From NCBI GenBank assembly GCA_948466345.1, contig CAOKAC010000003.1, positions 140,812 through 204,811 of the forward strand: DNA of 64,000 bases, given 5' to 3'. Positions 5,809 to 58,392 of the stretch are shown in pieces; position 1 is the first letter of the stretch; the number at the start of each line of letters is the position of its first letter. Position numbers and translations under genes: made by a program. This DNA comes from an uncultured Clostridia bacterium. Its GTDB lineage: Bacteria; Bacillota; Clostridia; Oscillospirales; CAG-272. The notes beneath the pieces were generated by a model, which worked only from the letters and a program-made list of their open reading frames with translations, had not been told where the DNA came from and did no database searches.

Positions 5809-7941
5809 ATGAAAAAGCTGTTTTCTATTGTTTTAATGGCAGCTCTGCTTGTTGCTTGCATCACACCGGCGCTCTATTCCTCCGCAGCGGACGTTGCTCC
5901 GTCCTTTGTGGTTGCAGAGAACACCGATTTTGATGAAAACGCAGGCACGGTCGACGTAACTTTTGGTATTGCAAACAACCCAGGCATTTCCGAATTAAAG
6001 GTGCTGGTGTACTACCTTGAATCTGAATTGTCTATTGCTAAGTTTTCGAATGGAACTGTTTTTGATGCTGCTGATAACGTGCAGGGAGCAACGCTAAAGT
6101 CTGATAACAGAAATATGAAACCATATTTCTCGGCAGAGGAGTTTGGTGATGTTGTCTATAATGTAACCGAGTTTGATGTATATGCTCCGACTATGGACGC
6201 AGACGAAACTGAAAATGGAACATTTCTTAACTTAACTTTCAATTTTGCTGGCGCACATCCTGCAGGTGCAGAATTTACATATGGTATTAAAGTAATGTCT
6301 GCAACTAATGCTGAAGGTGACCCTATTGACTTTGCTGGTAAGCAGGAAGGCAAAGTTACTGCTACTCCTGATCCCTACAAAGATGTTTACGACAACTTTA
6401 CTGTGTTCACTACAGACGGAACTGTGGATGTGGATGCAAAGGAAGTAACTGTAGACCTTCGTCTTGTAAATAACCCTGGTATCAATGCGCTTCGTATTTT
6501 CATTGCTTACGATGAAGCATTGCAGCTGACCACTCTCCAGCCTGTTGACGGTATCTTTACCGGAAGCGAGTTCGAGGTAAGTGAAGATAAGCATGCAGAT
6601 CCTTCTGCAAGCGCATCCGCAAAGAATGCTTTCGCGCATAAGAATATTTCCCTTGATGGAAAAGCTTGCGCTATTATTCTGGCAACAGCAGACAAAGAAG
6701 AAAACAGAACTGCCGGCGGCGTTTTGGCTCGTCTTACCTTTGCATTGCCCGAAGATATGAAGCAGGGCGATAGTTTCCCCATTGACTTCTGCTGGACTGG
6801 TACAGATATAGTACAGCTTGATATGGACAACATGGATGAGTATGGCAAGCCTGTACTGAAATTCTTGGAACCTGACAATCCTACCTGCGCTGTTGGAACC
6901 AAGGTTTGTGAGCATCCGAATGTAGTTCTCACAGAAACAACAGCTCCTTCTTGTACAGCAACAGGCGTAAAGAGCGGTGAGTGTCCGGATTGCGGTCAAA
7001 CTGTTGAAGAAGTTATTCCTATGCTTCCGCATACACCTTCTGCTGATACCAAAGTAACACCTCCTACTTGTACTGAAGCGGGTAAGATTACAACTGTATG
7101 TGAAGTTTGTGGCAACGATATTGAAACAGTAGATGATCCTGATAACGCTGCACTGGGTCATGATGAAGTAAATGTAAGAGAAAATATTACTAAACCCGCA
7201 ACTTGTGCAGAAGCAGGTCTTAAAGATATTATTTGCGGTAGATGTGATGTAGTTCTGCAAAAAGATGTAGAAATTACTAAATTGCCTCATACAGAAGCAA
7301 CTAGAGTTGTAGATCCTACTTGTACAGAAGGTGGTAAGATTGTTACCTACTGCTCTGTTTGTAACGAAATCATTAATGAAGAGGTAGATCCTGATCATGC
7401 GGACGCTTTGGGTCATACTGCAGGCGCACCTGTAGTGACCAAGCCTGCAACCTGCAAAGAAGAAGGTTCTCAGGATATCTACTGCACAGTATGCGAAGAA
7501 AAAATTGCAACAGAAACTATTGAGATGCTGGAGCATGATGTAGTTACAGTAGTAGTGGATCCTACTTGTGTTGATGCAGGTAAAATTGTTACGAAATGTT
7601 CTCTTTGTGGTGATATATTCAGTGAAGAAGAGGATGTAGATCATCCCGCAACCGGTGTGCACACTCCTGGTGAACCTGAGATTGTTGAGCCGACAGCTAC
7701 AGAAGAAGGCACTAAGACAATTAAGTGCTCCGTTTGTGGCGAAGTGCTCTCCACTGAAAAGATCCCCGCAAAAGGCGTTGATTCTAGTGATGCAGGCACA
7801 ACAAAAGCTCCTGACAAGAATACAGGCAAAAATCCTGTGACTGGCGATAACATGGTATATGTAATCGTTATTGCTGCTGTTGCAGTTATTGGTTGCAGTG
7901 CTGTAGTTGTTATTAGAAAGAAGAAAGCTTCTGAAAGATAA
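5809..7941 (+). CDS. secreted cell-surface protein: two cohesin-like domains, seven His/Cys3 mini-repeats, NPxTG-type sorting signal
   Basis: Signal peptide MKKLFSIVLMAALLVACITPALYSSAA. Two cohesin-like beta-sandwich regions (aa ~30-185 and ~195-355, e.g. VTVDLRLVNNPGINALRIFIAYD). A Cys-rich repeat block. C-terminus is KNPVTGD, then a hydrophobic helix, then RKKKASER. Confidence 0.8.
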   Translation: MKKLFSIVLMAALLVACITPALYSSAADVAPSFVVAENTDFDENAGTVDVTFGIANNPGISELKVLVYYLESELSIAKFSNGTVFDAADNVQGATLKSDNRNMKPYFSAEEFGDVVYNVTEFDVYAPTMDADETENGTFLNLTFNFAGAHPAGAEFTYGIKVMSATNAEGDPIDFAGKQEGKVTATPDPYKDVYDNFTVFTTDGTVDVDAKEVTVDLRLVNNPGINALRIFIAYDEALQLTTLQPVDGIFTGSEFEVSEDKHADPSASASAKNAFAHKNISLDGKACAIILATADKEENRTAGGVLARLTFALPEDMKQGDSFPIDFCWTGTDIVQLDMDNMDEYGKPVLKFLEPDNPTCAVGTKVCEHPNVVLTETTAPSCTATGVKSGECPDCGQTVEEVIPMLPHTPSADTKVTPPTCTEAGKITTVCEVCGNDIETVDDPDNAALGHDEVNVRENITKPATCAEAGLKDIICGRCDVVLQKDVEITKLPHTEATRVVDPTCTEGGKIVTYCSVCNEIINEEVDPDHADALGHTAGAPVVTKPATCKEEGSQDIYCTVCEEKIATETIEMLEHDVVTVVVDPTCVDAGKIVTKCSLCGDIFSEEEDVDHPATGVHTPGEPEIVEPTATEEGTKTIKCSVCGEVLSTEKIPAKGVDSSDAGTTKAPDKNTGKNPVTGDNMVYVIVIAAVAVIGCSAVVVIRKKKASER
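6907..7773 (+). repeat. seven tandem ~40-45-aa coding repeats, H-x(9-13)-C-x(3-4)-G-x(5-6)-C-x2-C
   Basis: Repeats read directly, e.g. HTPSADTKVTPPTCTEAGKITTVCEVCG, HTEATRVVDPTCTEGGKIVTYCSVCN, HDVVTVVVDPTCVDAGKIVTKCSLCG. The last unit has lost its first Cys (EPTATEEGTKTIKCSVCG). Similarity is also visible at DNA level. Confidence 0.8.
7831..7938 (+). other. C-terminal cell-wall sorting-signal-like region (NPVTGD + TM + basic tail)
   Basis: NPVTGD is followed by NMVYVIVIAAVAVIGCSAVVVI and RKKKASER. This tripartite layout is typical of sortase substrates, with an NPxTG variant motif. Confidence 0.55.
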
Positions 7942-7970
7942 GCTGTTTTAGCACATATTGTGTAAATATA

Positions 7971-8003
7971 AAAAGCCTTGGGAAATATTCCAGGGCTTTT
8001 TAT
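7971..8003 (+). terminator. intrinsic terminator
   Basis: GCCTTGG / CCAGGGC stem (one G-U pair) with an 8-nt loop, then TTTTT. Confidence 0.65.
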
Positions 8004-8095
8004 TTAGGAAAAAATTATACTATTATATGCAAGGCTTCTTGTAAAATTTCAGTTCACGTGGTACAATACATAGTATAAAGTAAAAGGAGGATAAC

Positions 8096-8761
8096 ATGAA
8101 CAAGAGAATAAGTGTAGTACTCCTTCTTTTATTATCGAGCTTTCTATTTTCTAGCTGCGGTGTTAGGGACTTTCTCTCTACACTTGGTTTTGATACGCAC
8201 GATTACGAGGGCGAAGAACTATTAGAGACATACGATGGGGATACCGAAAAAGCAGATGAATTAACAGAAATGTTAGAAATTTTGACGATTCATTCCCCTC
8301 TACTCATGCCATTTGAGGGAGCTAAAGAGGCTATGATCTCCTGTCGTGATTCTGTTCTGAATTATATGCTAAATAAAAGCTATTCAAAATATACTGGAAA
8401 CATTACGCTTTTAGATCAGGTGAAAGAAGCATACCCACATATGCAGGTTTCAGCAATTATTCCTGCTGAGGATTTTGAAAATACAGTCTATACTTATTTC
8501 GGAGGCAGACAAAAAATCAAAAATGTAACCAGCACGCTTTTTATGTATTTGGAAAAAGTCAATGCATATATTACTGTTGCCCAGCCGCAGGAGAGTAATG
8601 TACAATTTGAAATTCAAAAAATAGAAGAAACAGAAAATACCTACCGTGTCTATTTTCGGTGTATATTGTATGAAGAAGTATCTCCTTTGTACAAAACACT
8701 GATTATCAAACGTGACGATGGCAATTCTTATTTCCGTTATCTGCGAGAGTATGATGCGTAA
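8096..8761 (+). CDS. putative lipoprotein, unknown function
   Basis: AAAGGAGG RBS. Signal peptide with lipobox (LLLLLSSFLFSSCG). No recognisable catalytic motif. Confidence 0.6.
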   Translation: MNKRISVVLLLLLSSFLFSSCGVRDFLSTLGFDTHDYEGEELLETYDGDTEKADELTEMLEILTIHSPLLMPFEGAKEAMISCRDSVLNYMLNKSYSKYTGNITLLDQVKEAYPHMQVSAIIPAEDFENTVYTYFGGRQKIKNVTSTLFMYLEKVNAYITVAQPQESNVQFEIQKIEETENTYRVYFRCILYEEVSPLYKTLIIKRDDGNSYFRYLREYDA

Positions 8762-8790
8762 AAAAACCACCAGCTATGCTGGTGGTTTTA
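8761..8790. terminator. bidirectional intrinsic terminator
   Basis: AACCACCAGC-tat-GCTGGTGGTT perfect hairpin flanked by an A-run and a T-run, between convergent genes. Confidence 0.75.
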
Positions 8791-8793
8791 GTT

Positions 8794-9324
8794 TTATCTA
8801 AAAATATGATGCGCACGTTTTTCCACGGCAAACAACAGAATGAATCCAAGGCCAACGCCAGCAATTAATTCTCCAATTCCAATTGTTAGTGTTAAAAACC
8901 AGATTGCCGAAGTATCGCCATATACGAAACGAAGCACCCACGGCACGATAAGTATGTTAGCCAGTAAATTAGGGAAGGGGAGAGACAATTTAAGAAAAAA
9001 GGCTTTCTTGCTCTTTCCAGTACTTTTTTTGATACATTTGCCGATCCAGTAGGCACCCAATGCACCCAAAAGCGTTGCCACAGATCCGAAAAGGATGTCC
9101 CAAGGCGCACACCCAGTTACCAAATTGGCTATAGCGCATCCAACGAATAGCCCTGGTATCGCTGCTGGTGTAAAGAGAGGAAGTACACATAAAGCTTCTG
9201 AAATCCGTACTTGGATCACACCAGATGCAAGCCCTGCCATAGCCGATACTAAGGTGAGAGCCACATAGACAGCCGCGATAAGACCTGCTTGCACAATAAA
9301 GAATAGCGTCTTTTTGTTTTTCAT
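8794..9324 (-). CDS. queT: queuosine-precursor transporter QueT (ECF S-component-like)
   Basis: Start at MKNKKTLFF (ATG 9324). About 5 TM helices. IQVRISEAL motif is typical of QueT. Preceded by a preQ1 riboswitch. Confidence 0.75.
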   Translation of the reverse strand: MKNKKTLFFIVQAGLIAAVYVALTLVSAMAGLASGVIQVRISEALCVLPLFTPAAIPGLFVGCAIANLVTGCAPWDILFGSVATLLGALGAYWIGKCIKKSTGKSKKAFFLKLSLPFPNLLANILIVPWVLRFVYGDTSAIWFLTLTIGIGELIAGVGLGFILLFAVEKRAHHIFR

Positions 9325-9334
9325 ATTTAGTTTT

Positions 9335-9376
9335 CTCCGTAGTTTTGTTTTTTGTGAGGATTTTGCGAACTCACAG
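9335..9376 (-). promoter_or_regulatory. preQ1-I riboswitch
   Basis: Minus-strand RNA: CUGUGAG-UUCGCAAAAUC-CUCAC-AAAAAACAAAACUA-CGGAG. P1 is GUGAG/CUCAC, the loop starts UUCGC, and an A-rich tail ends in CUA directly before the SD (GGAG), 10 nt from the ATG. Confidence 0.7.
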
Positions 9377-9381
9377 GATAT

Positions 9382-9410
9382 AGTATAACACAAATATTGA
9401 CACTTGTAAA
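9382..9410 (-). promoter_or_regulatory. sigma-A-type promoter of the preQ1-queT unit
   Basis: On the minus strand: TTTACA (9410-9405), 17-nt spacer, TATACT (9387-9382). Confidence 0.65.
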
Positions 9411-9411
9411 G

Positions 9412-10119
9412 CTATTTCATAGCTTCTATAAATTGAATACCGCCAAAGTCAGATAACGGTCCGTCCCAGAGCTCAACAATAGGGATTTTTTTCTTGCGGC
9501 AAAATTCTAGCAAAGCATGCCCTGTGCTGCAGCGCTTAGCCTGACCATATATATAAACGGTGTCTTTCCAGACCCCACCGCAGCCGCCGATAAAGCCTGT
9601 ATTATACCCCGAAAGCCGTATGTCCCCGCCCGGAACTTTATATATGGGGATCCCGATTCGTTCACCTGCACGACAAATTGATGGATCTGCCGTCACTAGC
9701 GTTCCGCCTATATATAAAGTAGAACATCCTGCATACCCTTGCTTTGTATCTGCTGCCAAATAGGGCAGCAATTCTGGCACAAGGGAAGAGCGGCGGGCGA
9801 TTACTTGCTGTCTATCAGGTAAAACCAGCGCATTTACCCCCACATCTAAAGGATATAGTGCTGCACGCGGTGCAGCTGTACAAATTAAATTCAGCTTGCA
9901 CAGTTCAAGAATTCTATCAATTACTTGATGTGCCAAGCAATAATATTCCCGATGGCAAAATAATTTGCCATCTAGAATGACAATTAACATATCTGGATGA
10001 TGTGCAACTGGTGGGGCTAGCTGGGGATCGGCTGGTAGTCTCAATATTTCAAAATTTTTAGAAAGTTTTTTCGCTGCAGCTGCGGGACAATTTTCACTAA
10101 TAATTGCGAGAACGGACAT
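9412..10119 (-). CDS. hypothetical protein (possibly a DUF6873-type amidinotransferase-fold protein)
   Basis: Start at MSVLAII (ATG 10119) behind GAGGTG. 235 aa, soluble, Cys in FIGGCGGVW near the C-terminal third. The family call is recollection only. Confidence 0.4.
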   Translation of the reverse strand: MSVLAIISENCPAAAAKKLSKNFEILRLPADPQLAPPVAHHPDMLIVILDGKLFCHREYYCLAHQVIDRILELCKLNLICTAAPRAALYPLDVGVNALVLPDRQQVIARRSSLVPELLPYLAADTKQGYAGCSTLYIGGTLVTADPSICRAGERIGIPIYKVPGGDIRLSGYNTGFIGGCGGVWKDTVYIYGQAKRCSTGHALLEFCRKKKIPIVELWDGPLSDFGGIQFIEAMK

Positions 10120-15883: not shown

Positions 15884-18415
15884 ATGAAACTCGCATTTTC
15901 TACATTAGGTTGTCCGAATTTTAGCTGGCCTGATATTTACGCTATGGCGAAAGATGTCGGCTTTAGCGGCATTGAACTCAGAGGTCTTGGCGATGAAATT
16001 TTTTCTGTTCACGCGGAGCCCTTTAGTGAAGAAAATATTGAGAAGACCAAAGAAAAACTGAAAAAATTACATTTGGAAATTCCGTGTCTTTCTTCCGGCT
16101 GCGCTCTGCGCTTTGCAGAACATTTGGAAGAAAACGTGCAAGAGATTGGTGAATATATTCGTCTGGCGAAACAGCTTGGAACTCCCTATATCCGTATTTT
16201 AGGAGACCGCACTGCAGAAGTTACAACAGATTTTGATGATACTGTAGTGGTAGAAGCTTTGCGGAGGCTGGCGCCGCAGGCGGAAGCTGCGGGGGTCATG
16301 CTGCTTGTGGAGACAAACGGTGTATATACAGATACACAGCGTTTATGCTCCGTGCTCAACGCGGTAGAAAGTGATGCGGTGGGAGCTCTTTGGGATATGC
16401 ATCATCCTTATCGATTTGGCGGAGAAAAGCCACAGCAGACGATTCAAAATCTTGGCGCGTATATTAAATATACCCATATCAAAGATTCTGTTATGAACGG
16501 CGAAATAGTAGAGTATCGAATGATGGGAGAAGGGAATCTTCCTATTTCTGACTTTCTGGCGGCGCTCCGTTCTATCAATTATGAGGGGTACATTTCTCTG
16601 GAGTGGCTCAAACGCTATATGCCCGATTTGGAGTCCTCCGGAATCGTATTCCCGCATTTTGTAAACTACATGCAGCAGTACATCGGTTCTTCCGACATGG
16701 CGGGCAGATTGCAGACCAGTGCTAGAGGCGATGGAAAATATGTATGGCCCAAAGAAAGACTGATTGATCTGACTTTTCCCCAGGTGCTGGATCGTATGTG
16801 TGACGAGTTCCCGAATCAGTATGCATTCCGATATACCACCTGCGATTATACCAGAACATACAGCCAGTTCCGAGAAGACGTGGATAATTTTGCCCGGTCC
16901 CTTATTGGTATGGGTGTCAAACAGGGAGATCATGTAGCAATTTGGGCGACAAACGTACCTGCGTGGTATATTACCTTTTGGGCGACAGTGAAAATCGGCG
17001 CTGTGCTTGTAACAGTTAATACCGCGTATAAGATCCATGAACTGGAATATTTGCTTCGTCAATCAGATACACATACTCTTGTTATGGTGGACAGCTATAA
17101 AGACTCCGATTATGTGAAAATCATCAACGAATTGTGTCCGGAACTGCAGACCGCAAAGAAGGGAGCCCCCCTGCGGATTAAGAAATTGCCATTCTTACGC
17201 AATATTATTACCTGTGAGTCTGACCAGAAGGGATGTTGGAATTGGGAAGAGGCTTTAGCGGCAGGAGAGAGTGTGCCTGTCAGCGAAGTATATCGTCGTG
17301 CGTCTATGATCAGCAAGCATGATGTATGTAATATGCAGTATACCTCCGGTACAACCGGGTTTCCCAAGGGCGTCATGCTTACCCATTATAATGTGGTAAA
17401 TAACGGCAAAGCAATTGGAGACTGTATGGATTTATCTACAGCAGACCGGATGATGATTCAGGTGCCAATGTTCCACTGTTTCGGTATGGTGTTGGCTATG
17501 ACCGCATCTATGACGCATGGTGTCACTATGAGTCCGATTCCTGCATTTTCTCCCAGCAAGGGACTGGCCTGTATTACAAAGGAGAAAATCACTTGTTTTC
17601 ATGGTGTGCCTACTATGTTTATCGCTATGCTTGGGCATGCTGACTTTGAAAAAACGGATTTCAGTCACATGCGTACCGGCATTATGGCCGGCAGCCCTTG
17701 TCCCATTAAGGTAATGGAGCAGGTAATCGAAAAAATGCATATGAGCGAGATCTGTATCACATATGGGCAGACCGAGGCGTCTCCGGCAACAACGATGTCT
17801 AAAATTACAGATTCTATTGAAACCAGAGTAAACACGGTGGGAAGTCCTATCTTTGGCGTAGAATGCAAAATTGTAGATCCGGAAACGGGTGAAGAGCTTC
17901 CCGACAATGTGGACGGTGAATTTGTGGCCAGAGGCTATAATATCATGAAAGGATATTATAAAATGCCTGAAGCTACTGCTGCTGCAATTGATGCAGACGG
18001 CTGGCTCCATTCCGGGGATATGCTGCGTCGTCTGCCGGATGGGAACTACAAAGTAACCGGCCGCTTAAAGGATATGATTATTCGCGGCGGAGAAAATATT
18101 TATCCAAAAGAAATTGAAGATTTTATTTATACCCACCCGAAGGTAAACGATGTGCAGGTGATTGGTGTTCCCGACAAGGATTACGGAGAAGAGATCATGG
18201 CCTGCGTCATTCTGAAGGAGGGTGAGACATCTACAGAAGAAGAGATCAAGGCATATGTACGGGATCATATGGCAAAGCACAAAACGCCCCGATATGTGGC
18301 TTTTGTAGATGCGTTCCCCATGAATGCGGCGGGTAAAATCCTTAAGTATAAAATGCGCGAGGATGCGGTGAAGCTGCTGAATCTTACAGATGCTAGCAAG
18401 ATTGTAACGGCATAA
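15884..18415 (+). CDS. fusion protein: xylose-isomerase-like TIM-barrel (AP endonuclease 2 family) domain + AMP-forming acyl-CoA synthetase
   Basis: Single 843-aa ORF. aa 1-~270 (MKLAFSTLGCPNFSW...YISLEW) look like sugar-phosphate isomerase/epimerase TIM barrels. aa ~290-843 carry adenylate-forming motifs (MQYTSGTTGFPKGVMLTH, YGQTE, GWLHSGD, IIRGGENIYPKEIE). Confidence 0.85.
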   Translation: MKLAFSTLGCPNFSWPDIYAMAKDVGFSGIELRGLGDEIFSVHAEPFSEENIEKTKEKLKKLHLEIPCLSSGCALRFAEHLEENVQEIGEYIRLAKQLGTPYIRILGDRTAEVTTDFDDTVVVEALRRLAPQAEAAGVMLLVETNGVYTDTQRLCSVLNAVESDAVGALWDMHHPYRFGGEKPQQTIQNLGAYIKYTHIKDSVMNGEIVEYRMMGEGNLPISDFLAALRSINYEGYISLEWLKRYMPDLESSGIVFPHFVNYMQQYIGSSDMAGRLQTSARGDGKYVWPKERLIDLTFPQVLDRMCDEFPNQYAFRYTTCDYTRTYSQFREDVDNFARSLIGMGVKQGDHVAIWATNVPAWYITFWATVKIGAVLVTVNTAYKIHELEYLLRQSDTHTLVMVDSYKDSDYVKIINELCPELQTAKKGAPLRIKKLPFLRNIITCESDQKGCWNWEEALAAGESVPVSEVYRRASMISKHDVCNMQYTSGTTGFPKGVMLTHYNVVNNGKAIGDCMDLSTADRMMIQVPMFHCFGMVLAMTASMTHGVTMSPIPAFSPSKGLACITKEKITCFHGVPTMFIAMLGHADFEKTDFSHMRTGIMAGSPCPIKVMEQVIEKMHMSEICITYGQTEASPATTMSKITDSIETRVNTVGSPIFGVECKIVDPETGEELPDNVDGEFVARGYNIMKGYYKMPEATAAAIDADGWLHSGDMLRRLPDGNYKVTGRLKDMIIRGGENIYPKEIEDFIYTHPKVNDVQVIGVPDKDYGEEIMACVILKEGETSTEEEIKAYVRDHMAKHKTPRYVAFVDAFPMNAAGKILKYKMREDAVKLLNLTDASKIVTA

Positions 18416-21813: not shown

Positions 21814-22083
21814 TTATCGCGAAGTGTTGGCGCTGTATTCCCAAGGCCAAGGTCCCTTTATCCAACTCCAGCAGTCGTTGTCCGTACCGCCGTGAATAGT
21901 TAAAGGCCCATATTGGGATTCATATGCTAGATACGCTTCTTCCAGCAGACGGTTGTATTTATTATAGCAAGCAATGGCAGCTTGATCACCAGGATGCGTA
22001 TCCAAATACAAATTAACTTCTACCAGAGCGAACCCATATACTTGAATATCATGCATCAATGCGTTTCTATCTTTAGGCATCAT
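21814..22083 (-). CDS. cotJB: spore coat protein CotJB
   Basis: ALMHDIQVYGFALVEVNLYLDTHP...YNKYNRLLEEA pattern of CotJB. The likely start ATG 22083 overlaps the cotJA stop (ATGA) behind AAAGGGG. Confidence 0.85.
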   Translation of the reverse strand: MMPKDRNALMHDIQVYGFALVEVNLYLDTHPGDQAAIACYNKYNRLLEEAYLAYESQYGPLTIHGGTDNDCWSWIKGPWPWEYSANTSR

Positions 22084-22508
22084 CAGCGGCACCCCTTTCT
22101 CGGACAAGCCGTAGGGTAAAAGGGAAAATCCAGTTCTTTGAATAGAGTTCCCCTTTCAAAGCCAGGTTCCAGATCGTAAAGATTTCTCCATTCCTGCATG
22201 GGTACATAGGCCATGGCAAGAGGCATTCCTGCAAGTCTGTCTTCACCATGCACCCTACACTGACCAGATGTGCGGCCCGGACAGGAAGCGCCTAATCCCC
22301 TATTGCATCCACATCCGTTTTGCCTGGGCATACCGACTTTGTTGCGTGTGGGGCAGATTGTTGCCTGCGACAAGGTAGAAACTGCCTCACGGCTCTCCTG
22401 TTTACCGTATTTCTGCGTCGGCATTTGTCCTACATGGCTGAACAGTTCTTCACCAATGCGGTCGCGCGGGGTTCTGTTTTCAGCATTGTAATTCATAATT
22501 ATGCACAT
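22083..22508 (-). CDS. cotJA: spore coat-associated protein CotJA (with long N-terminal extension)
   Basis: C-terminal LAMAYVPMQEWRNLYDLEPGFERGTLFKELDFPFY is the CotJA signature. The start is uncertain (22508 or 22496). Confidence 0.8.
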   Translation of the reverse strand: MCIIMNYNAENRTPRDRIGEELFSHVGQMPTQKYGKQESREAVSTLSQATICPTRNKVGMPRQNGCGCNRGLGASCPGRTSGQCRVHGEDRLAGMPLAMAYVPMQEWRNLYDLEPGFERGTLFKELDFPFYPTACPRKGCR

Positions 22509-37362: not shown

Positions 37363-37364
37363 AG

Positions 37365-37399
37365 AAAAACCAGGTCAACAAAGTTGACCTGGTTTTTTT
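37365..37399. terminator. bidirectional intrinsic terminator
   Basis: CCAGGTCAAC-aaa-GTTGACCTGG flanked by an A-run and a T-run. Confidence 0.8.
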
Positions 37400-37407
37400 A
37401 TAGTTAT

Positions 37408-38250
37408 TTAGTTTCCGCAGCCGCAGCGCTTGCCGTTGTCCGTACTGCATCCCCTAGCTAGACTGCCTGCAGAAGGCGGGCAGAACTCATTTACAGGGAA
37501 AGCCATACTGTGGAACAATCGGCAGGGATCATCTTCGTGTACTTCCTGGCAAACTTTTTCGGGAACGCAGTATTCCACTGCATTTACCAGATATTGCGCA
37601 GGGCGCTCAATACGAATTACGGAGAAGAGTCCTAGGGTAACAACCAATTTGTCTCCCTCTGTGTCACAAATGTCACCGCCGGATACTGTGCAGCAAACTC
37701 CCTGAGGAATTTCGTCACAGCAGCAGCAACAGCAACAGCATTTCTGTTCTGGCTTTACAATTTTGCAGGACAGAATAATCGGGTCTACTGCTTCTACGAC
37801 AGCAATGGGAAGATTTGTAGTCATAGGGCATCCGCAGCCGTCTTTGGGCGGGCAGAAGCCGGAGCAGTTATTATCGCTTTTGAATACGCTTACATTGCCT
37901 TCGCTGCCAAACAGAATGACCTTTTTCTCAACAACAGCGATACCTTCTACTTCCTGTATATTTCCGGGAGAAATACACGCTTCGCAGGTAACACGGATAT
38001 AGATCTTAATAGTCAACTGATAGAATCCTCTGTTGAATGGAACACAATCAATGTTGATATAAGACCATACGATTCTGGCACATTTGCAGCGTACTGCAAC
38101 TCCTCTATCAACAAGCTCCTGGCCGTATCCGGTCAGAAATACACGTACATCCTCGAAACAGTCCTTGTCGCGGCAGGAATCAAGAACCCGGTATGTATCG
38201 ATACATACCATTTCCCGGGACGAGGGCTGACACTGTCTGTTATCAGACAT
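37408..38250 (-). CDS. cysteine-rich protein (~32 Cys in 280 aa, C8 run), unknown function
   Basis: ATG 38250 behind GGAGG. Sequence reads ...EQKCCCCCCCCDEIPQGVCCTV... plus many CxC/CxxC pairs. No signal peptide or TM helix seen. Confidence 0.7.
   Translation of the reverse strand: MSDNRQCQPSSREMVCIDTYRVLDSCRDKDCFEDVRVFLTGYGQELVDRGVAVRCKCARIVWSYINIDCVPFNRGFYQLTIKIYIRVTCEACISPGNIQEVEGIAVVEKKVILFGSEGNVSVFKSDNNCSGFCPPKDGCGCPMTTNLPIAVVEAVDPIILSCKIVKPEQKCCCCCCCCDEIPQGVCCTVSGGDICDTEGDKLVVTLGLFSVIRIERPAQYLVNAVEYCVPEKVCQEVHEDDPCRLFHSMAFPVNEFCPPSAGSLARGCSTDNGKRCGCGN
37717..37740 (-). repeat. (TGY)8 trinucleotide tract encoding eight consecutive cysteines
   Basis: Plus strand ACA GCA GCA GCA ACA GCA ACA GCA, which is minus-strand TGC TGT TGC TGT TGC TGC TGC TGT, in frame with the CDS. 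Confidence 0.9.
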
Positions 38251-38333: not shown

Positions 38334-38654
38334 TCAGATGTCCGCCTCTATAAAATCCGGGAAAGCTTCTTCTAAAAGCTGAAATCCTCGTAAAATCGCC
38401 ATAGTATTGTCCAAAATCAAGGCGTTATCGTCCGGCAGTTCAAAATCCATTCGTACATATCCTGCAGAAAAATCTTCTCTGTAACGCTCAATTTTTCCTT
38501 CCTCGTATGCTTCACGCAGCAGGGCACGCAGTGTGTAACATAAAATCGACACCGCAGAGCATAAAATATCCTGTCCGGCAGAGGCATATTCTGTATGTCC
38601 AACACATTCAAATAAGTACGTGTCATAATACGTGTCAAAAGAAATTTTGGTCAT
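38334..38654 (-). CDS. Prp/YsxB-like cysteine protease (phage-associated)
   Basis: 106 aa. GHTEYASAGQDILCSAVSIL aligns with the Prp catalytic His/Cys block (GHAG...GQDIVCAAIS in B. subtilis YsxB). ATGA overlap with the portal stop. Confidence 0.7.
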   Translation of the reverse strand: MTKISFDTYYDTYLFECVGHTEYASAGQDILCSAVSILCYTLRALLREAYEEGKIERYREDFSAGYVRMDFELPDDNALILDNTMAILRGFQLLEEAFPDFIEADI

Positions 38655-40288
38655 TGTAAAAGCTCCTTTGAGGAGATAGGTGCAGGAGAAAGAGACCTTT
38701 CACCGTTTTCACGCACCCGGCGCAAAATTTCTTCTTTTCCCTCGAATTCCATGATTTCAAGACAAAGCTGTGCCTCATTGCTGCGATGGGGTTCAAAAAT
38801 ACCCATTTTATACAGTTCACAGGCAAGCTCATTCATAGCCATTCTGGAGAATGCTGTTTTTTTGTGTGCACGAACTTTGATATCAAAGATAGGCTGCGCA
38901 CGCAAGAAGGATTCATCATCGTTTTGACCAAATATATCGCTTCCACATTGAATAAACGCTTCCAGACCGTCAGCGCCCACAATGCGGAAGCAGCGCGGCC
39001 AGGTATAAAATTGGCGGATTAGATCGATCAGAAAAATACAGATATCTTCATAAGCACGATATGCTCCGGAAAGCATATCTCGGGAGCTTTTGTTACCGGC
39101 TTCCTGAAGCGCCGCAATGGCAGATGCTGCAGTGACACCGCCGCTGGTAGACCCTTGGGAGAAATCCCGGTTGCCAGTGGTTTCTTTTATCTCGTCAATT
39201 TTATTGTTTAGTATAGCGACATAAACTTCTGAAAGAGTGGGAACGGTGATGGGCATAATGGATGTGGATGGATCTCCGGATCCGGAATAGTGCACAAAGG
39301 GCTGGTCCCACTTGGCAAATTCTTTTTCGTTAATGCTGCCGTCGCTGCGTACAAAAAAGCGTCTTTCAGCTGCCATTCTGGCATTGCGTACAATGGCACT
39401 GCTTAAAATATCTATTTCTTTCTGGGTGCCCCGCATAGCGTCAATTACACTGAAGCCGCAGGGTGACCCTTGTATTGGATACATTTTGTCAATTACAAAG
39501 GGATATCTTCCATGATTATAAAATCCGATTTCCCGATACAGCGGATCATTTTCTGAGGCGTACAGGAGAATTCCATTGCAGAATTTACAAAAGTGCAGAC
39601 ATTCTTTCCCATCTTTTTTTGTTTTATAGTACCAATCGATTACAGCTGATTTGTCGGAGGTATCAACAGTATCGTCATAAATATACTGTGTGATATCAAA
39701 AGTTGGTGTGGCAAGACAGTCCTGCAATACTGGATATTCTTCCTGCAAGTAGTCATTATCCCAAAGATCCACGTGAAAAATATTTTGTGATTTCTGTATG
39801 TCTGTGATGCCTGGCTCCCAGAAAAGGTTGAGCAGGTCAATGCGCCGTACATCAATGTTACCAAGGCCCTCGTCCAGAGATTGATTCCAGAAAACTCCGT
39901 AGCATGCGGCGCCGTACTTTAGTTTATCATACCAGCATTCGGAGTAGGTACTTTCAAAATGGTTTCGTTCCAAAATAAGCGGCAGGATGTCAGTAAGCAG
40001 ACGCGCTGCTGGTCCATCGCTTTTTTCACGCGGTAAACACGTTGCCTCCGGGATATTGTCCATGGCATCGGCATGTTTGTTAATAATTGTGTTAAACAGC
40101 CAGCCGGTAGCGATAGAGTCCTCACTTTTGTCATCGTAATGCCGCATTTTCCACCACTGCTCACTGTCGATGATGCGTTTTTCGAACGATGCTTTTCCTG
40201 CCTTATATTTTTCCAGTATGGCGTATGCCGCACATACGGTGTCATTTGTGATTGGCTCCGCTGTACGCCCTTTTTTTTGTTTTTTCAT
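38651..40288 (-). CDS. phage portal protein
   Basis: 545 aa directly downstream of the large terminase. GGAGG RBS. The N-terminal YKAGKASFEKRIIDSEQWWKMRH and the overall size fit Firmicute siphophage portal families. Confidence 0.7.
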   Translation of the reverse strand: MKKQKKGRTAEPITNDTVCAAYAILEKYKAGKASFEKRIIDSEQWWKMRHYDDKSEDSIATGWLFNTIINKHADAMDNIPEATCLPREKSDGPAARLLTDILPLILERNHFESTYSECWYDKLKYGAACYGVFWNQSLDEGLGNIDVRRIDLLNLFWEPGITDIQKSQNIFHVDLWDNDYLQEEYPVLQDCLATPTFDITQYIYDDTVDTSDKSAVIDWYYKTKKDGKECLHFCKFCNGILLYASENDPLYREIGFYNHGRYPFVIDKMYPIQGSPCGFSVIDAMRGTQKEIDILSSAIVRNARMAAERRFFVRSDGSINEKEFAKWDQPFVHYSGSGDPSTSIMPITVPTLSEVYVAILNNKIDEIKETTGNRDFSQGSTSGGVTAASAIAALQEAGNKSSRDMLSGAYRAYEDICIFLIDLIRQFYTWPRCFRIVGADGLEAFIQCGSDIFGQNDDESFLRAQPIFDIKVRAHKKTAFSRMAMNELACELYKMGIFEPHRSNEAQLCLEIMEFEGKEEILRRVRENGERSLSPAPISSKELLQ

Positions 40289-40327
40289 ATTTGATTCATC
40301 CTCCTTGCCGCTATGCGGCTTTTTATT

Positions 40328-41713
40328 TTAATATGTAAATTGTCTATATTTTTGTCCGTTCGCCAACAGATTTAATGGATCGTCGCTTGCTGATTGAACA
40401 GCAGACGCGGGATTCGGCCGGATGGGCCGGTTCATACAGAAATATCGAAAGGAATCGGCAAAGTGATCTTCCTGGGAAGTATCCAAATCTTCGGGACAAT
40501 GTTCGCTATAAGTGAGTAAGGGCAGGGTGCGTATGGCGTGTTTACAGGTATTAAAAAAATATACCATTGGTTTCCCATCCCCATCAAAAGCAAGTCGATA
40601 ATGGCACTGCATCCATCCTGGCAGGCGCTTGTTGTCTCCGGGCTGAAAGTATACATAATGTCGGTCTGCTGCTTCAATAATGGCTTCTCCACGGGACGCG
40701 TCCCATATGGAAGGGTCGGCAACTCCGAAAATTTGTTTGCCCCGCAGCCAGCGGTGTTCTGCTTCAATTTTGTGGATTTCCCGAAAAATTCGATCGGGAT
40801 CCCATTTTACCCCTTCGTTGGGGTTTATACAGCCATATAGCTGCAGGATCAAGTAGGCGCGCCCTTCAAAATCAATTGCCCACCAGTCACAGGAAAAAGG
40901 TTTAGAATATCCAAAGTCAAAGCTACGGTACAGTTTCCAATCCGGCGGAACTTCAAAGGGATCAATTACATGGGTATAGAGCTTGTCGCGATAGTGGGAT
41001 GCATCGTCGGTAAATTCTTCAAAAAACTGTCCCTCAAAAATATCCCAGTCACCCTCCAGCCAAGCTTTACGCAGTTTGGGAGGCAATGCTTCCAGCTTTT
41101 GAATATATCCGGGATCACTTTGCATCAGCGCTGTATTATCTGTGACAAGAGAGCGGATAAACATATACTCGTCTGCCTCTTCTCCTGGTTTAGTGGCTTT
41201 ATCAACAAATAGCCGTTTTACCCAGCCATGTCCTACGCCTCCCGGATTACAGGTGAGATAAATTCGTTTTGGATAGGTATTTACACCGCGAACGCAGGCC
41301 TTGATTCGATCATACATTTCTTCCGGGAATTGTGTTGCCTCATCTATAAACAGCACATCGGTTTCTGTTCCTTGAAATTTATCCAGGTCTGCTACATTAC
41401 GACAGTAGCGAAAAGCAATAACCGATCTGTTTTTAAAGGTCATATCCCGAGTAGATTCCTTGTATGTAGCAATTCCATGGAGTAGAGGAATCATAGGCAC
41501 GATGTGGTTTTGCCGCAGCTCTGGGTAGGTACGGCGCACAATCATAATACGAATACCAGGATAATGCAGGGCTAACAAGGCTGCCTTAATGCGTACAGCC
41601 CAGCTTTTGCCCCCTCCGCGGGCACCGCCAAAAGCGATGTATCGATGTGTATCCGCAAGAAATAGTTCCTGCCGAGGGGAGGGCCTTGGAATTTGAAGGG
41701 TTACTTTGCCCAT
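40328..41713 (-). CDS. phage terminase large subunit
   Basis: 461 aa. Walker A FGGARGGGKSW, Walker B VLFIDEAT, C-terminal RNase-H-like nuclease region (FDFGYS...DHFADSFRY). Confidence 0.85.
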   Translation of the reverse strand: MGKVTLQIPRPSPRQELFLADTHRYIAFGGARGGGKSWAVRIKAALLALHYPGIRIMIVRRTYPELRQNHIVPMIPLLHGIATYKESTRDMTFKNRSVIAFRYCRNVADLDKFQGTETDVLFIDEATQFPEEMYDRIKACVRGVNTYPKRIYLTCNPGGVGHGWVKRLFVDKATKPGEEADEYMFIRSLVTDNTALMQSDPGYIQKLEALPPKLRKAWLEGDWDIFEGQFFEEFTDDASHYRDKLYTHVIDPFEVPPDWKLYRSFDFGYSKPFSCDWWAIDFEGRAYLILQLYGCINPNEGVKWDPDRIFREIHKIEAEHRWLRGKQIFGVADPSIWDASRGEAIIEAADRHYVYFQPGDNKRLPGWMQCHYRLAFDGDGKPMVYFFNTCKHAIRTLPLLTYSEHCPEDLDTSQEDHFADSFRYFCMNRPIRPNPASAVQSASDDPLNLLANGQKYRQFTY

Positions 41714-42138
41714 TTTTCAATGTCCCCCTCCAGCACCACGTTTATGGCGGTATCGCAGTCTTCAGTATCGGCTTCTTCCAGTCCACGGATTACAGCAGCC
41801 AATTCTTTTGCGGCAAGAGTCAGTTCCTTTAGCTGACGGATATCCGCATGGTCACCGTTTTCCAATGCTCCCTTCATTTCGGCGGCCATTTTGTCAATAA
41901 TTTCTGCTATGGTTTCTACAGCTAACCGCAGCCGCGTACTTTGGCCTTCATTTTCTTGTCGGGGCTGTGAACCGTTAGGAGAATATTGGCTTTTTTTTTG
42001 GCGTGTATGGTACCATCCATCCTTTCTACCAATTTTTTGTAAGCTAGGAACTGGGATGCCATATTTATCTGCAAGGCTTTTATAGCTGGCTCCTAACATG
42101 AAATCATGCCGAATCATCTTTAATCTTTCATCTGTCAA
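41701..42138 (-). CDS. phage terminase small subunit (HTH)
   Basis: TTG start at 42138 behind AAAGGAG. N-terminal HTH (GASYKSLADKYGIPVPSLQKIGRKDGW). 13-nt overlap with terL. Confidence 0.65.
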   Translation of the reverse strand: MTDERLKMIRHDFMLGASYKSLADKYGIPVPSLQKIGRKDGWYHTRQKKSQYSPNGSQPRQENEGQSTRLRLAVETIAEIIDKMAAEMKGALENGDHADIRQLKELTLAAKELAAVIRGLEEADTEDCDTAINVVLEGDIEKWAK

Positions 42139-42342
42139 TCGTCACACTCCTTTCTGACAGTACATAGCATAGCGGACTTTGGCTGTCATTTCTCCCCATC
42201 AGGAATATACTGGTATAGGATTGTAAAAAGAGGCGGTAAAAAGGAAGAACGCGAAATAGCAGTTTTTCAGGCTGGTTTACAGAAAAACAACTGAATTTTT
42301 AAAGTAAAAAAGGCGGGAGCCAATGAAAGGAAAGGGAACAGT

Positions 42343-42564
42343 ATGATGTGTATAGCGGCAATGAAGAATATGACAGCCGCCATAAAAGGGAGAAGTGCAC
42401 TGGAATTGGTGGGAATACGGTGTACAATTGTTAGTTTGGAACCTACACTGACAAAACGGGGATGTGCGTATGGACTGAGTTTTCCATGTGCATATTTGGA
42501 TAAGGTAAAATCTGTTTTGTCGTCCAAACGGATCAACTATGGTGAAATACTGGGCGGCAGATGA
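42343..42564 (+). CDS. DUF3343 domain protein (putative S/Se carrier-like)
   Basis: 73 aa. The pattern ...A...L...GI.C.IVSLEPTLTKRGCAYGLSF... fits DUF3343. Its stop lies 15 nt before the class-V aminotransferase start, a common pairing. Confidence 0.6.
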   Translation: MMCIAAMKNMTAAIKGRSALELVGIRCTIVSLEPTLTKRGCAYGLSFPCAYLDKVKSVLSSKRINYGEILGGR

Positions 42565-42578
42565 AAGGGGGAAGGCGG

Positions 42579-43712
42579 ATGATATATCTTGATAATGCGG
42601 CGACTACGTATCCAAAGCCGGAGTCTGTCGTACAGGCAATGACTACGTGTATGCGGGAATATTGCGGAAATCCAGGGCGAGGAAGTCATACTATGGCGGT
42701 ACGTGCATCGGAAAAGCTGTATGAGTGCCGGCAAGAGGCTACGGAACTATTCGGCGCCGACAGCCCAGAAAATGTAGCGTTTACTTTAAATACTACGTAT
42801 GCACTGAATATGGCGATTAAGGGACTTATTCCTGCGGGATCCCATGTAATTCTATCGGACATGGAGCATAATAGCGTGCTTCGCCCGGTAGAGGAACTAC
42901 GCAGGAGCAGTGGCGTCCATTATGATATTTTTCGTACAGGCGGCAGTGACTTCGAAACACTGGAACGCATCCGCCGCCTGATTAAGCGGGATACAGTGGC
43001 TGTTATATGTACTGGCTGCTCGAATATCATTAACCGCACACTACCAATACGTGATATTGGAAGACTGTGTGAAAACCATGGTCTATATTTTATTTTGGAT
43101 GGGGCGCAGGGCGCTGGTATATATGATATCAACATGCGTCGGGATAAGATTACAGCACTTTGTGTTCCAGGCCATAAAGGATTGATGGGGCCCCAAGGAA
43201 CTGGTCTTTTGATTCTGCGTGAAGATGTGACGATTGATACACTCGTAGAAGGCGGCAGCGGTATTCATTCAGCGGATCCGGGCATGCCGGATTTTCTTCC
43301 GGACAGACTGGAGGCTGGAACGATGCCCACACCTGGTATCGCAGGACTTTGTGAAGGGATTCGATATGTGCGCAGCAGGGGAGTGGAAGAGATACGCGCC
43401 CATGAGGCAGGGCTTTATCGGGCATTGATGAACACCTTGCGGGGAGATTCTAGGTTGGTAATTTACAGCAGTAGAGTTCCAGGTGCAATTGTTCTGTTTA
43501 ATATTAAAGGCGTCAGTGCCCAAAAGACAGGATATGAGTTGGATAGAAGGGGGATTTGTGTGCGCAGTGGACTGCATTGTGCACCACTTGCCCACGAAAC
43601 GTTAGGAACGCCGGATGGCGGCGCGGTGAGAGTAAGCTTTGGTCCGCTTTCTTCCATGAACGATGTTACAGGTTTTTGTAATGCGCTGCACGATGTGATA
43701 AAAGCGGAATAG
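42579..43712 (+). CDS. class V aminotransferase-fold PLP enzyme (cysteine desulfurase family)
   Basis: MIYLDNAATTYPKP start, PLP-lysine region VPGHKGLMGPQGTG, C-terminal VRSGLHCAP. Confidence 0.8.
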   Translation: MIYLDNAATTYPKPESVVQAMTTCMREYCGNPGRGSHTMAVRASEKLYECRQEATELFGADSPENVAFTLNTTYALNMAIKGLIPAGSHVILSDMEHNSVLRPVEELRRSSGVHYDIFRTGGSDFETLERIRRLIKRDTVAVICTGCSNIINRTLPIRDIGRLCENHGLYFILDGAQGAGIYDINMRRDKITALCVPGHKGLMGPQGTGLLILREDVTIDTLVEGGSGIHSADPGMPDFLPDRLEAGTMPTPGIAGLCEGIRYVRSRGVEEIRAHEAGLYRALMNTLRGDSRLVIYSSRVPGAIVLFNIKGVSAQKTGYELDRRGICVRSGLHCAPLAHETLGTPDGGAVRVSFGPLSSMNDVTGFCNALHDVIKAE

Positions 43713-43754
43713 TCAAAGCCGGCGCTCAGTTTGTTACTGAGCGCCGGCTTTGAC
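43712..43754. terminator. 19-bp perfect GC-rich hairpin between convergent genes
   Basis: GTCAAAGCCGGCGCTCAGT-ttgtt-ACTGAGCGCCGGCTTTGAC. There is no U-tract on either side, so function as an intrinsic terminator is uncertain. Confidence 0.5.
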
Positions 43755-44296
43755 TACGTACTTTTACAGTTTTTTATATGTGCCTTTAACTTTTTGATTG
43801 CCCAATCATAATGACTGGAGGTGTCACTTATAAAATACGAACCCAAAGTGCTTTTTCCAACCCATTGGTAAGTTCCCTTAGTAAACAGTTCTTCATTGGA
43901 AAAGGTCTCCGCCAATGACACTACATCTTTATGAGATTTCTCAAGCATTTTTTTGGCTTCCTCTAAAGTGGTGTCCTGGTGCTTTTCCCAAAATTTTATA
44001 TTCATATCCCCATAGGTTTTCCAGTTGTACGGCTCTGGAATAAATGGCTTGCTGTCCCCATTTTGATTGGATTGTACCCAATTCAGTAAAAGCTGGTGCC
44101 ATTCATAGAGATGGATCAGGATGTCACGCAGGTTTCGATCTCGTCTCCAATGCGCTTCTTTTTTCTTCTCATCCTTTGAAAAATCAAAGGGGGTAGCCAA
44201 TTCTTTTTCCGTCAAACTGGCAATCAGCGCATTCATTTTCTCATATCCTGCTGTTGCCGCATTTAACAAATCTGTTTTTGTTGTCGGTCTGCCCAT
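43754..44296 (-). CDS. ClbS/DfsB family four-helix-bundle protein (DUF1706)
   Basis: 180 aa. TKTDLL...Y.KM...I..L, ILIHLYEWHQLL and SSHYDWA motifs recalled from ClbS/DfsB. The gene and its flanks look more AT-rich than neighbours by eye. Confidence 0.65.
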   Translation of the reverse strand: MGRPTTKTDLLNAATAGYEKMNALIASLTEKELATPFDFSKDEKKKEAHWRRDRNLRDILIHLYEWHQLLLNWVQSNQNGDSKPFIPEPYNWKTYGDMNIKFWEKHQDTTLEEAKKMLEKSHKDVVSLAETFSNEELFTKGTYQWVGKSTLGSYFISDTSSHYDWAIKKLKAHIKNCKST

Positions 44297-57288: not shown

Positions 57289-58392
57289 TTATGCTTTTTC
57301 CCGTTCAAAGAAATATTTTTGATTGTGACATTTGATACTCTGCACCAGCCCAATAAGCATATACATTGCCAGCAGAGAAGAGCCACCGTAACTCATAAAG
57401 GGAAGGGTGATTCCAATTACCGGCAGCATCGCCAGACACATTCCGATATTTTCCAGCGTTTGAAACATAAGAACCGCAACGACTCCGGCACAGATATATG
57501 CCCCGTAATCCTTTCGGGCGATGCGTGCAATCCAAATCAGACGGATTACCAGTGTGGTCATCAGCGCCATATATAAGAAACAGCCGAAAAATCCAAACTT
57601 TTCTGCAAGAATGGCGAAAATGAAATCGGAATAGCAGTCGGGAATGAGCTTATATTGAGTTCCTCCGGAAAATCCGGAGCCAAGAAATCCTCCAGCCGCT
57701 ATAGCAGTACGGCTGCTCAGTGCTTGAAACCCTTTTCCAAGAGGATCTAATTCTGGGTCGAACCCACAGATAATTCTCTGCCTCTGCGTTTCGCTCAAAA
57801 ATTTCCATAAAACAGGCGACGCTGCCGCGACAAGGGCAAACGCCCCGATAAAATACCAGATAGAAAGCCCGCCTACAAGGAGCATAACGGCGATGATTCC
57901 AAGATATACTAAGGCGGATCCCAGGTCTCCGGTCATTAAAACCAAACCAAAAATGATACCTCCATGAATAGCCAAGCCGGCTACATTTTTTATATGATTG
58001 ATATCGTCCTGTACACGTTTGATGTGCCGGGAATAAGTAATGATAAATAAAAACTTTACATATTCTGACGGCTGTATATCGAAAGGTACACCAGGGATAC
58101 GCAACCATGCCTTGTTTCCACGATCTCCTGCTCCAAAGACGATTACGGAGGCCATTGCAAGGACTGCTAGGACAAAAATCCATATACCGAAGCGTTTGAC
58201 CAGCTTGTCATAATCCAAATATGCCAGAACAAACATAACGCAGATGCCAAGGAGCGCCGCAATAGATTGCACTATCGCGTACCGTGAGCCAACTTTGTTT
58301 GCAGCTCCTGCTAGTGTAACAATAGAAAGGGCGGTCATACCCAGCACGCAAAATAGGATTACATAATCGATTTGACGCAGCTTTTCTTTCAA
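57289..58392 (-). CDS. FtsW/RodA/SpoVE family peptidoglycan glycosyltransferase
   Basis: 367 aa, about 10 TM helices. SEYVKF, GDLGSAL and PFMSYGGSS motifs of SEDS proteins. Confidence 0.85.
   Translation of the reverse strand: MKEKLRQIDYVILFCVLGMTALSIVTLAGAANKVGSRYAIVQSIAALLGICVMFVLAYLDYDKLVKRFGIWIFVLAVLAMASVIVFGAGDRGNKAWLRIPGVPFDIQPSEYVKFLFIITYSRHIKRVQDDINHIKNVAGLAIHGGIIFGLVLMTGDLGSALVYLGIIAVMLLVGGLSIWYFIGAFALVAAASPVLWKFLSETQRQRIICGFDPELDPLGKGFQALSSRTAIAAGGFLGSGFSGGTQYKLIPDCYSDFIFAILAEKFGFFGCFLYMALMTTLVIRLIWIARIARKDYGAYICAGVVAVLMFQTLENIGMCLAMLPVIGITLPFMSYGGSSLLAMYMLIGLVQSIKCHNQKYFFEREKA

Follow-up and report, generated by a model that had tools for sequence, protein, structure and literature searches.

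A conserved phage-derived DNA packaging operon without adjoining head genes in the chromosomes of uncultured gut Clostridia

The stretch of DNA analyzed in this work, hereafter the window, comprises 64,000 nucleotides (64 kb) from an uncultured Clostridia bacterium of the Oscillospirales (assembly GCA_948466345.1, contig CAOKAC010000003.1, positions 140,812 to 204,811). It carries a block of four phage-type genes, which encode a small terminase-like protein (TerS), a large terminase (TerL), a portal protein and a cysteine protease of the Prp family. The block, which is read from the minus strand, is organized as follows, in coordinates of the window:

42138-38334, minus strand: whole block, four intact, co-directional and tightly packed open reading frames (ORFs), terS-like, terL, portal and Prp
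41701..42138, minus strand: TerS-like small terminase, 145 aa, with a TTG start behind GTCAGAAAGGAG and a C-terminus (...EKWAK) that overlaps terL
40328..41713, minus strand: TerL large terminase, 461 aa, with an ATPase and an RNase-H-like nuclease
38651..40288, minus strand: portal, 545 aa, of the P22/SU10 type
38334..38654, minus strand: phage-type Prp cysteine protease, 106 aa, containing GHTEYASAGQDILCSAVS

The overlap between terS and terL spans 13 nt, and that between portal and Prp is ATGA. The assignments of TerL, portal and Prp lie above the curated profile cut-offs. TerL, whose Walker A and Walker B motifs are GGARGGGKS and LFIDEA, matches the Pfam families Terminase_6N (2.4e-12) and Terminase_3 (3.6e-12), as well as phrog_2 (1.6e-45) and TIGR01547; the portal matches P22_portal PF16510 (2.7e-29; 102.6 bits against a cut-off of 26.1) and phrog_156 (2.7e-76), and Prp matches PF04327 (1.2e-11; 45.2 bits against a cut-off of 27) and phrog_4478 (9.6e-12). 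The profile matches of TerS are weak (phrog_1206, 1.5e-5; phrog_4151, 1.1e-6), with none in Pfam; we call it TerS-like because its position, its overlap with terL and its homology to the TerS of two related clusters (L006 and L162, described below) back these matches. It consists of an N-terminal helix-turn-helix (HTH) domain of about 60 aa (window 41959-42138) followed by a helical core of about 80 aa. The possibility that the Prp of the window is the orthologue of host ysxB, i.e. the ribosomal Prp, was ruled out, given that its best NCBIfam score (35 bits) is far below the cut-offs of the ribosomal-Prp equivalogs (133-225 bits) and that the gene follows a portal instead of lying between rplU and rpmA. 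No gene for L27 was found within the window.

Likewise, no capsid, tail, lysis or integrase gene is present within the 64-kb window, nor is there any tRNA gene or att-like direct repeat. Pfam and PHROG scans of most of the other large ORFs of the window detected no other phage gene, only ordinary chromosomal functions, and the GC and GC3 values of the four genes fall inside the host range. The block had been reported in a preliminary description of this DNA, and we confirm its coordinates, the TTG start, the Walker A motif, the 545-aa portal, both overlaps and the intactness of the four genes. The terminase, portal and Prp assignments made there also hold, with that of TerS weaker in the profiles and backed by context and homology, and so do the absence of capsid, tail, lysis and integrase genes, the remark that no gene for a Prp substrate lies nearby, and the ordinary chromosomal nature of the flanks, which encode DUF3343 and a cysteine desulfurase on one side, and a Cys-rich protein (CysR), a YesL-like protein and proC on the other.

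The region preceding terS contains two elements that are conserved in related loci:

42166..42197, minus strand: promoter GGGGAGAA-N18-TATGCT, the sole match in the 64-kb window, where 0.08 are expected by chance
42147..42158, minus strand: leader and ribosome-binding site GTCAGAAAGGAG, which precedes the TTG start and was read directly

The -10 box of this promoter is sigma-A-like in appearance, and a conserved, unusual 8-mer occupies the -35 position. Since the latter is not TTGACA-like, it suggests that a dedicated activator or sigma factor is required; no match to the consensus of sigma-E/F/G/K, sigma-H or LexA was seen at the promoter in an informal comparison made by eye.

Relatives of the block were gathered with the portal, keeping one genome per species, and the proteins of the window together with phage scaffold and capsid proteins were mapped onto all of the loci. 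Loci whose portal is at least 58% identical to that of the window form what we call here the orphan clade. It includes about 30 species-level genomes, belonging to Candidatus Avispirillum and to metagenome-assembled genomes (MAGs) of uncultured Clostridia, Eubacteriales and Oscillospiraceae, and its members come from the gut of mouse, rabbit, chicken, ruminants and human. Wherever the contig extends enough, the layout is the same: the desulfurase and DUF3343 genes diverge from terS-terL-portal-Prp, which is followed by CysR. The desulfurase/DUF3343 pair adjoins the module in 22 loci, and no match to the pair was found upstream of the module in L020 and L036; CysR is downstream of Prp throughout the clade. 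Outside these seven conserved genes, the flanks vary between distant members. No scaffold or capsid gene is present in any locus of the orphan clade (up to 10 kb on either side, less on short contigs), and no complete prophage occupies this site in the recovered members. In the 26-29 genomes concerned, all copies are full-length ORFs free of frameshifts and stops. The promoter is also maintained, given that all the aligned loci of the clade show GGGGAGAA-N18-TAT(G/C/T)AT upstream of terS with identical spacing, and most of them then show GTCAGAAAGGAG and the start codon 10-16 nt further on. The core of TerS was found in every locus; its N-terminal HTH is restricted within the clade to the subclade of the window (8 species), and is also present in L006, whereas the TerS of the other members is about 80 aa long and has no HTH. 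From these two types of TerS, the subclades may differ in DNA-recognition specificity. No member of the module was found among 2.9 million IMG/VR viral contigs, in which the best portal match is 51% identical.

The ratios of nonsynonymous to synonymous substitution rates (dN/dS) were obtained as pairwise values within the subclade of the window. For the module they are 0.027 for terL, 0.040 for portal, 0.045 for Prp and 0.147 for terS, and for the host genes 0.040 (desulfurase), 0.045 (YesL-like), 0.094 (proC) and 0.012 (CysR); in these comparisons dS is saturated, being already about 1-2 at 90% protein identity. In TerL, 48% of the residues are invariant across 26 species. Walker A and Walker B are among them, as are the three nuclease motifs, FDFGYSKPFS, ADPSIWD and EDHFADSFRY. 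The Prp dyad, formed by the His of GH and the Cys of ILCSAVS, is invariant in 29 sequences. Distances of the module and of its flanks co-vary (terL versus desulfurase, r=0.83, Mantel p=0.001), and the orphan clade is monophyletic, with neighbor-joining bootstrap values of 100/100 for the portal and 65/100 for terL. The module is vertically inherited under strong purifying selection, with its catalytic motifs and its own promoter intact. A phage-derived packaging operon entered the chromosome in an ancestor shared by Candidatus Avispirillum and its uncultured relatives among gut Clostridia; whatever lay downstream of Prp was lost or became detached from it. Given that strong selection has acted over the long term on intact packaging genes, the cell still uses them.

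Relatives with a portal no more than 53% identical to that of the window, and with enough downstream sequence, all run on into a head module. In nearly all of these, the order terL-portal-(Prp)-scaffold-major capsid is recognizable, and divergent or rearranged head regions were observed in L038, L040 and L047. The major capsid protein (MCP) of these relatives belongs to the N4-gp56 family, and the N-termini of the capsid and/or scaffold proteins read M..(N/D)LQ(F/L)FA, a leader of the Prp type (e.g. NLQFFA). It has been reported that Prp removes the N-terminal leader of L27, and its His/Cys dyad has been defined (PMC9405229); moreover, the capsid and scaffold proteins of phage 80alpha are cleaved by Prp (PMC5744158). 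The protease used by 80alpha is a Prp-family Cys/His enzyme whose substrates bear a ...LQ(F/L)FA leader, as do the capsid and scaffold proteins in the relatives of the module (PMC5744158; PMC9405229). In contrast, 80alpha relies on the ribosomal Prp of its host, whereas the orphan module encodes a phage-type Prp after the portal and has no substrate nearby: neither the window nor any of the orphan loci contains an ORF that begins with such a leader. The fact that selection has been kept on Prp and portal without a local substrate points to partners encoded elsewhere.

In their gene content, the closest full relatives are GTA-like (gene transfer agent) clusters restricted to structural genes, and not ordinary prophages. 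L006 (8093-20941) and L162 (5692-17598), whose hosts are Ruminococcaceae/Oscillospirales-type MAGs, are structural-plus-lysis clusters of 12-13 kb that run from terS to a GH25 lysin and directly adjoin host genes at either end; L007 also borders host genes at its upstream end, and its far end is beyond the sequence examined. Neither integrase nor replication genes are present in the sequence examined of L006, L007 and L162. The TerL of L162 is 70% identical to that of the window, and its TerS (87 aa) has no HTH; the portal of L006 was read on 24 contigs. Gut viromes are rich in phages whose portals are 45-51% identical to that of the window.

The promoter of the orphan clade also occurs in these relatives. 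The exact motif is found upstream of terS in L006 and L039, and L162 shows at this place a variant with one mismatch, GGGCAGAA-N18-TACTAT; no copy was found in L007. In the Faecalibacterium phage-like loci the motif appears twice per locus, before terS and exactly after Prp, ahead of the scaffold gene, and a near-match occupies the latter position in L006. In another group of phages a further internal copy lies downstream of the capsid gene. Judging by its sequence and placement, the orphan promoter motif is the late promoter of the related phage/GTA-like family, and the second copy located exactly after Prp in the relatives indicates that the orphan module ends at a natural transcription-unit boundary. 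As a general pattern, GGGGAGAA-N18-TATAAT recurs two to three times per late operon in this family of phages and GTA-like clusters of gut Clostridia (before terS, before scaffold and after capsid), with copies at 7999 and about 11990 in L006, at 3778 and 8283 in L043, and also in L082-L096, L164, L170 and L171. A second copy in L036 and the matches in L166 and L167 were discarded, as they resembled chance matches.

Many of the related phages have, directly ahead of the late promoter and terS, a gene for a small Cys-rich protein of about 70 aa (CP[FY]Y ... I.CEG ... C..C, abbreviated as CPxY...CEG); this gene is located at 3512-3724 in L043, 7353-7583 in L039 and 8025-8246 in L007. This protein is a candidate late regulator.

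We know of no role outside capsids for portals, terminases or capsid-leader proteases, and since all four genes of the module are under selection, capsids should be available to the cell. Their most economical source would be unlinked head, tail and lysis operons, located in the same genome and expressed from the same promoter. The reading that we favor, with a confidence that is no better than even, is that a GTA-like system has been split, with the operon as its packaging half and the head genes not linked to it. In the terms by which a GTA is recognized, the module is chromosomally fixed, vertically inherited and under purifying selection, and no integration, replication or lysogeny genes accompany it in the window. 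In such a system, a putative factor would read GGGGAGAA at the -35 position and activate the operon along with the unlinked head, tail and lysis operons. The portal would nucleate procapsids from N4-gp56-type capsid and scaffold proteins encoded elsewhere, Prp would strip the (N/D)LQ(F/L)FA leaders from the capsid and/or scaffold, and TerS-TerL would cut DNA and pump it into the heads. Because the TerS of most members, of about 80 aa, lacks a DNA-binding domain, host DNA is predicted to be packaged independently of its sequence, as occurs with the GTA of Alphaproteobacteria (RcGTA) and that of Faecalibacterium prausnitzii (FpGTA); the subclade of the window, which has the HTH, may package DNA in a more site-selective manner.

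The closest parallel to this arrangement is FpGTA, which forms 40-nm particles that carry about 8.5 kb of host DNA; its genes make up two operons separated by 125 kb, and no DNA-binding domain is present in its TerS (PMC12946183). FpGTA and the L006, L007 and L162 clusters share with the module a chromosomal, phage-derived terS-terL-portal(-Prp) set with a P22-type portal, unaccompanied by integrase or replication genes. The likeness to FpGTA-like clusters extends to the podovirus-like (N4-gp56-type) head genes found in the relatives of the module and to the short TerS, devoid of a DNA-binding domain, of most of its members. FpGTA also illustrates that the genes of such a system can be split over unlinked operons, as we propose for the module. 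They differ in that scaffold, capsid and further structural genes come right after portal/Prp in operon I of FpGTA and in L006, L007 and L162, whereas in the orphan locus no such gene follows Prp. RcGTA, for its part, is also a domesticated, vertically inherited, phage-derived packaging machine under purifying selection; its genes are distributed over several loci, and its TerS has no sequence-specific DNA binding. In contrast to the module, it belongs to an unrelated lineage and its terminase and portal genes are clustered with protease and capsid genes; a packaging-only locus has not been described for it. More generally, the literature searched nowhere described a conserved module restricted to packaging. 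Known domesticated phage elements (GTAs, tailocins and PBSX-like particles) keep head or tail genes beside the remaining machinery; what has been retained here, as a unit, is packaging enzymes, portal and maturation protease alone, evolving at the pace of housekeeping genes over about 30 gut species. If the head genes are elsewhere, GTA activity in gut Oscillospirales would extend to another lineage, and GTA operons would break at promoter boundaries; if there are none, the module would be a new bacterial use of phage parts. In either case GGGGAGAA-N18-TATAAT offers a handle for locating partner operons and their regulator.

The following observations count against a split system. First, capsid, scaffold, tail and lysis genes were not detected in the orphan-clade genomes, within up to 10 kb on either side of each locus (less on short contigs) plus the 64-kb window. 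Second, a profile search with the nearest MCPs gave, among the matches listed, only relatives from other taxa, 55-100% identical to the query, and none tied to the clade; one of these matches was examined and turned out to be another GTA-like full cluster. Third, a metagenome scan with the promoter and leader gave no portal-less head operon; it recovered one more orphan locus, plus phages with internal copies of the promoter. Finally, neither the window nor the orphan loci encode a homologue of the small CPxY...CEG protein.

A possibility that we entertain tentatively is that the clade does not itself encode a capsid, in which case the module could be a host-owned 'packaging parasite', with functions in defence and gene transfer, or could serve a capsid-free handling of cellular DNA. 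Either role, if true, would be a form of phage-gene domestication not previously described.

The former role would consist in capsid piracy: when a phage of the same family infects the cell or is induced, its late regulator would fire the shared promoter, and the portal and terminase of the host would seize the capsid and scaffold of the phage, sabotaging its packaging and filling the heads with host DNA. We consider this unlikely, although it would account for the retention of a late promoter of the phage family with no regulator encoded nearby, the candidate regulator (CPxY...CEG) being encoded in phages only, and for the lack of local capsid genes. The abundance in gut viromes of phages with 45-51%-identical portals is also in its favor, and the redirection of helper capsids by satellites is an established principle (PMC6893505). 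Nonetheless, no second, phage-borne portal homologue was found in about 29 orphan-clade assemblies, which speaks against a resident helper, and long vertical retention would require a lasting fit to the fast-evolving capsid and scaffold of phages. Furthermore, the module matches no PADLOC defence model, and a hijacker composed only of portal and terminase has no known example.

Somewhat more doubtful is an exaptation independent of capsids, in which the motor, the nuclease or Prp would act in DNA translocation, DNA processing or protein maturation, maybe tied to CysR or to desulfurase/DUF3343. It is consistent with a constant neighborhood of seven genes between variable outer flanks, with the failure to find a capsid gene, with the lack of a terminator between Prp and CysR, and with the extreme constraint on CysR (dN/dS 0.012), which elsewhere follows a small P-loop protein and not the module. 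However, the four proteins are known solely from capsid assembly and packaging, a function for a portal outside the capsid is without precedent, and TerL has kept both its nuclease and its ATPase motifs, as Prp has kept its dyad, the known substrates of which are capsid/scaffold or L27 leaders. In addition, CysR has its own promoter, and other genes intervene between Prp and CysR in L019 and probably in L021.

An active mobile satellite, either a phage-inducible chromosomal island (PICI) or similar to a capsid-forming PICI (cf-PICI), is very improbable. Its own terS, terL and portal make the module resemble cf-PICIs, and with them it could exploit the structural proteins of another element (PMC6893505); nevertheless, satellites carry integrase, att sites, regulation, replication and mobility functions and, in cf-PICIs, capsid genes, and none of these is found at the orphan locus. 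The window has no integrase, att repeats, tRNA, repressor or replication genes, the position of the module is fixed, it co-diverges with its flanks, and it was absent from all of the viral contigs searched. The preliminary description had suggested two explanations, a very recent deletion remnant or a retained packaging unit that could be satellite-like, GTA-like or domesticated. Of the second, domestication is upheld by the selection on the module, its co-divergence with the flanks and its intact motifs and promoter, whereas the satellite-like variant is contradicted by the fixed site and the lack of mobility genes; the comparison of synteny revealed the same site and layout in relatives, with no complete prophage there, and the dN/dS values denote purifying and not neutral evolution. 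A recent deletion remnant of a decaying prophage is suggested by the local picture only, where phage genes stop abruptly after Prp and chromosomal genes flank them, and is hardly credible, being refuted by a truncation that about 30 species share at this site, with saturated dS and dN/dS of 0.03-0.05, by the absence of any copy with a frameshift or stop, and by a composition ameliorated to that of the host.

The genes that flank the module in the window are the following:

37408..38250, minus strand: CysR, Cys-rich protein of 280 aa from the ATG at 38250, conserved downstream flank
42343..43712, plus strand: DUF3343 (Se_S_carrier, PF11823) and class-V cysteine desulfurase (PF00266, TIGR01977), divergent from the module, conserved upstream flank

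Beyond CysR, the window encodes a DUF624 (YesL-like) protein and proC. CysR has its own sigma-70-like promoter (TTGTCA-17-TATGAT, 38333-38305), which lies directly after the stop codon of Prp. Between Prp and CysR there are about 2.7 kb in L019 and L021, and in L019 this gap contains two unrelated genes: the insert (7594-9668) encodes a secreted protein of 281 aa, by eye a lectin plus M23 peptidase, and a lipoprotein of 388 aa. The gap of L021 is of equal size. CysR belongs to an unannotated Clostridial family with 2827 homologues, characterized by the invariant motif CIDTYRVLDSCRDKDCF, a poly-Cys tract and a CGC C-terminus. No sequence match was found in Pfam, PHROG, NCBIfam or PDB, and its AlphaFold model (mean predicted local distance difference test, pLDDT, 67.5) is beta-rich and has no significant PDB or viral fold match. 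In other Clostridia CysR occurs without the module (L008, L010, L173 and L174), and in three of these four loci it comes after PGI and a P-loop ORF of 135 aa. The idea that CysR could be a hidden scaffold or capsid protein was rejected, since it does not align with scaffold proteins and the family also exists without the module. Hence CysR is probably a conserved flank and not a part of the packaging machine, and we treat the DUF3343/desulfurase pair in the same way; a functional tie of either one to the module is possible.

CysR homologues with 33-43% identity are also present in five unannotated records from human faecal viromes named 'Bacteriophage sp.' (MT835750, MT835961, MT837948, MT837707 and MT836298), which may represent bacterial DNA, by contamination or transduction, and not phage genomes. 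Two perfect inverted repeats are located between convergent genes, one of 21 nt at 43710-43756 (desulfurase/DUF1706) and another of 15 nt at 37363-37399 (YesL-like/CysR); from their sequence and position, they probably terminate transcription in both directions and delimit the conserved block.

Elsewhere in the window, spore-coat genes for CotJB and CotJA are found at 21814-22508 (minus strand) and a gene of the FtsW/RodA/SpoVE family at 57289-58392, according to which the host is probably a spore former. Two ORFs of the plus strand, of 710 aa (5809-7941) and 221 aa (8096-8761), have no Pfam or PHROG match. Also in the plus strand, the region 15884-18415 encodes a fusion protein of 843 aa that joins a xylose-isomerase-like TIM barrel (AP_endonuc_2) to an AMP-binding enzyme of the acyl-CoA-ligase type.

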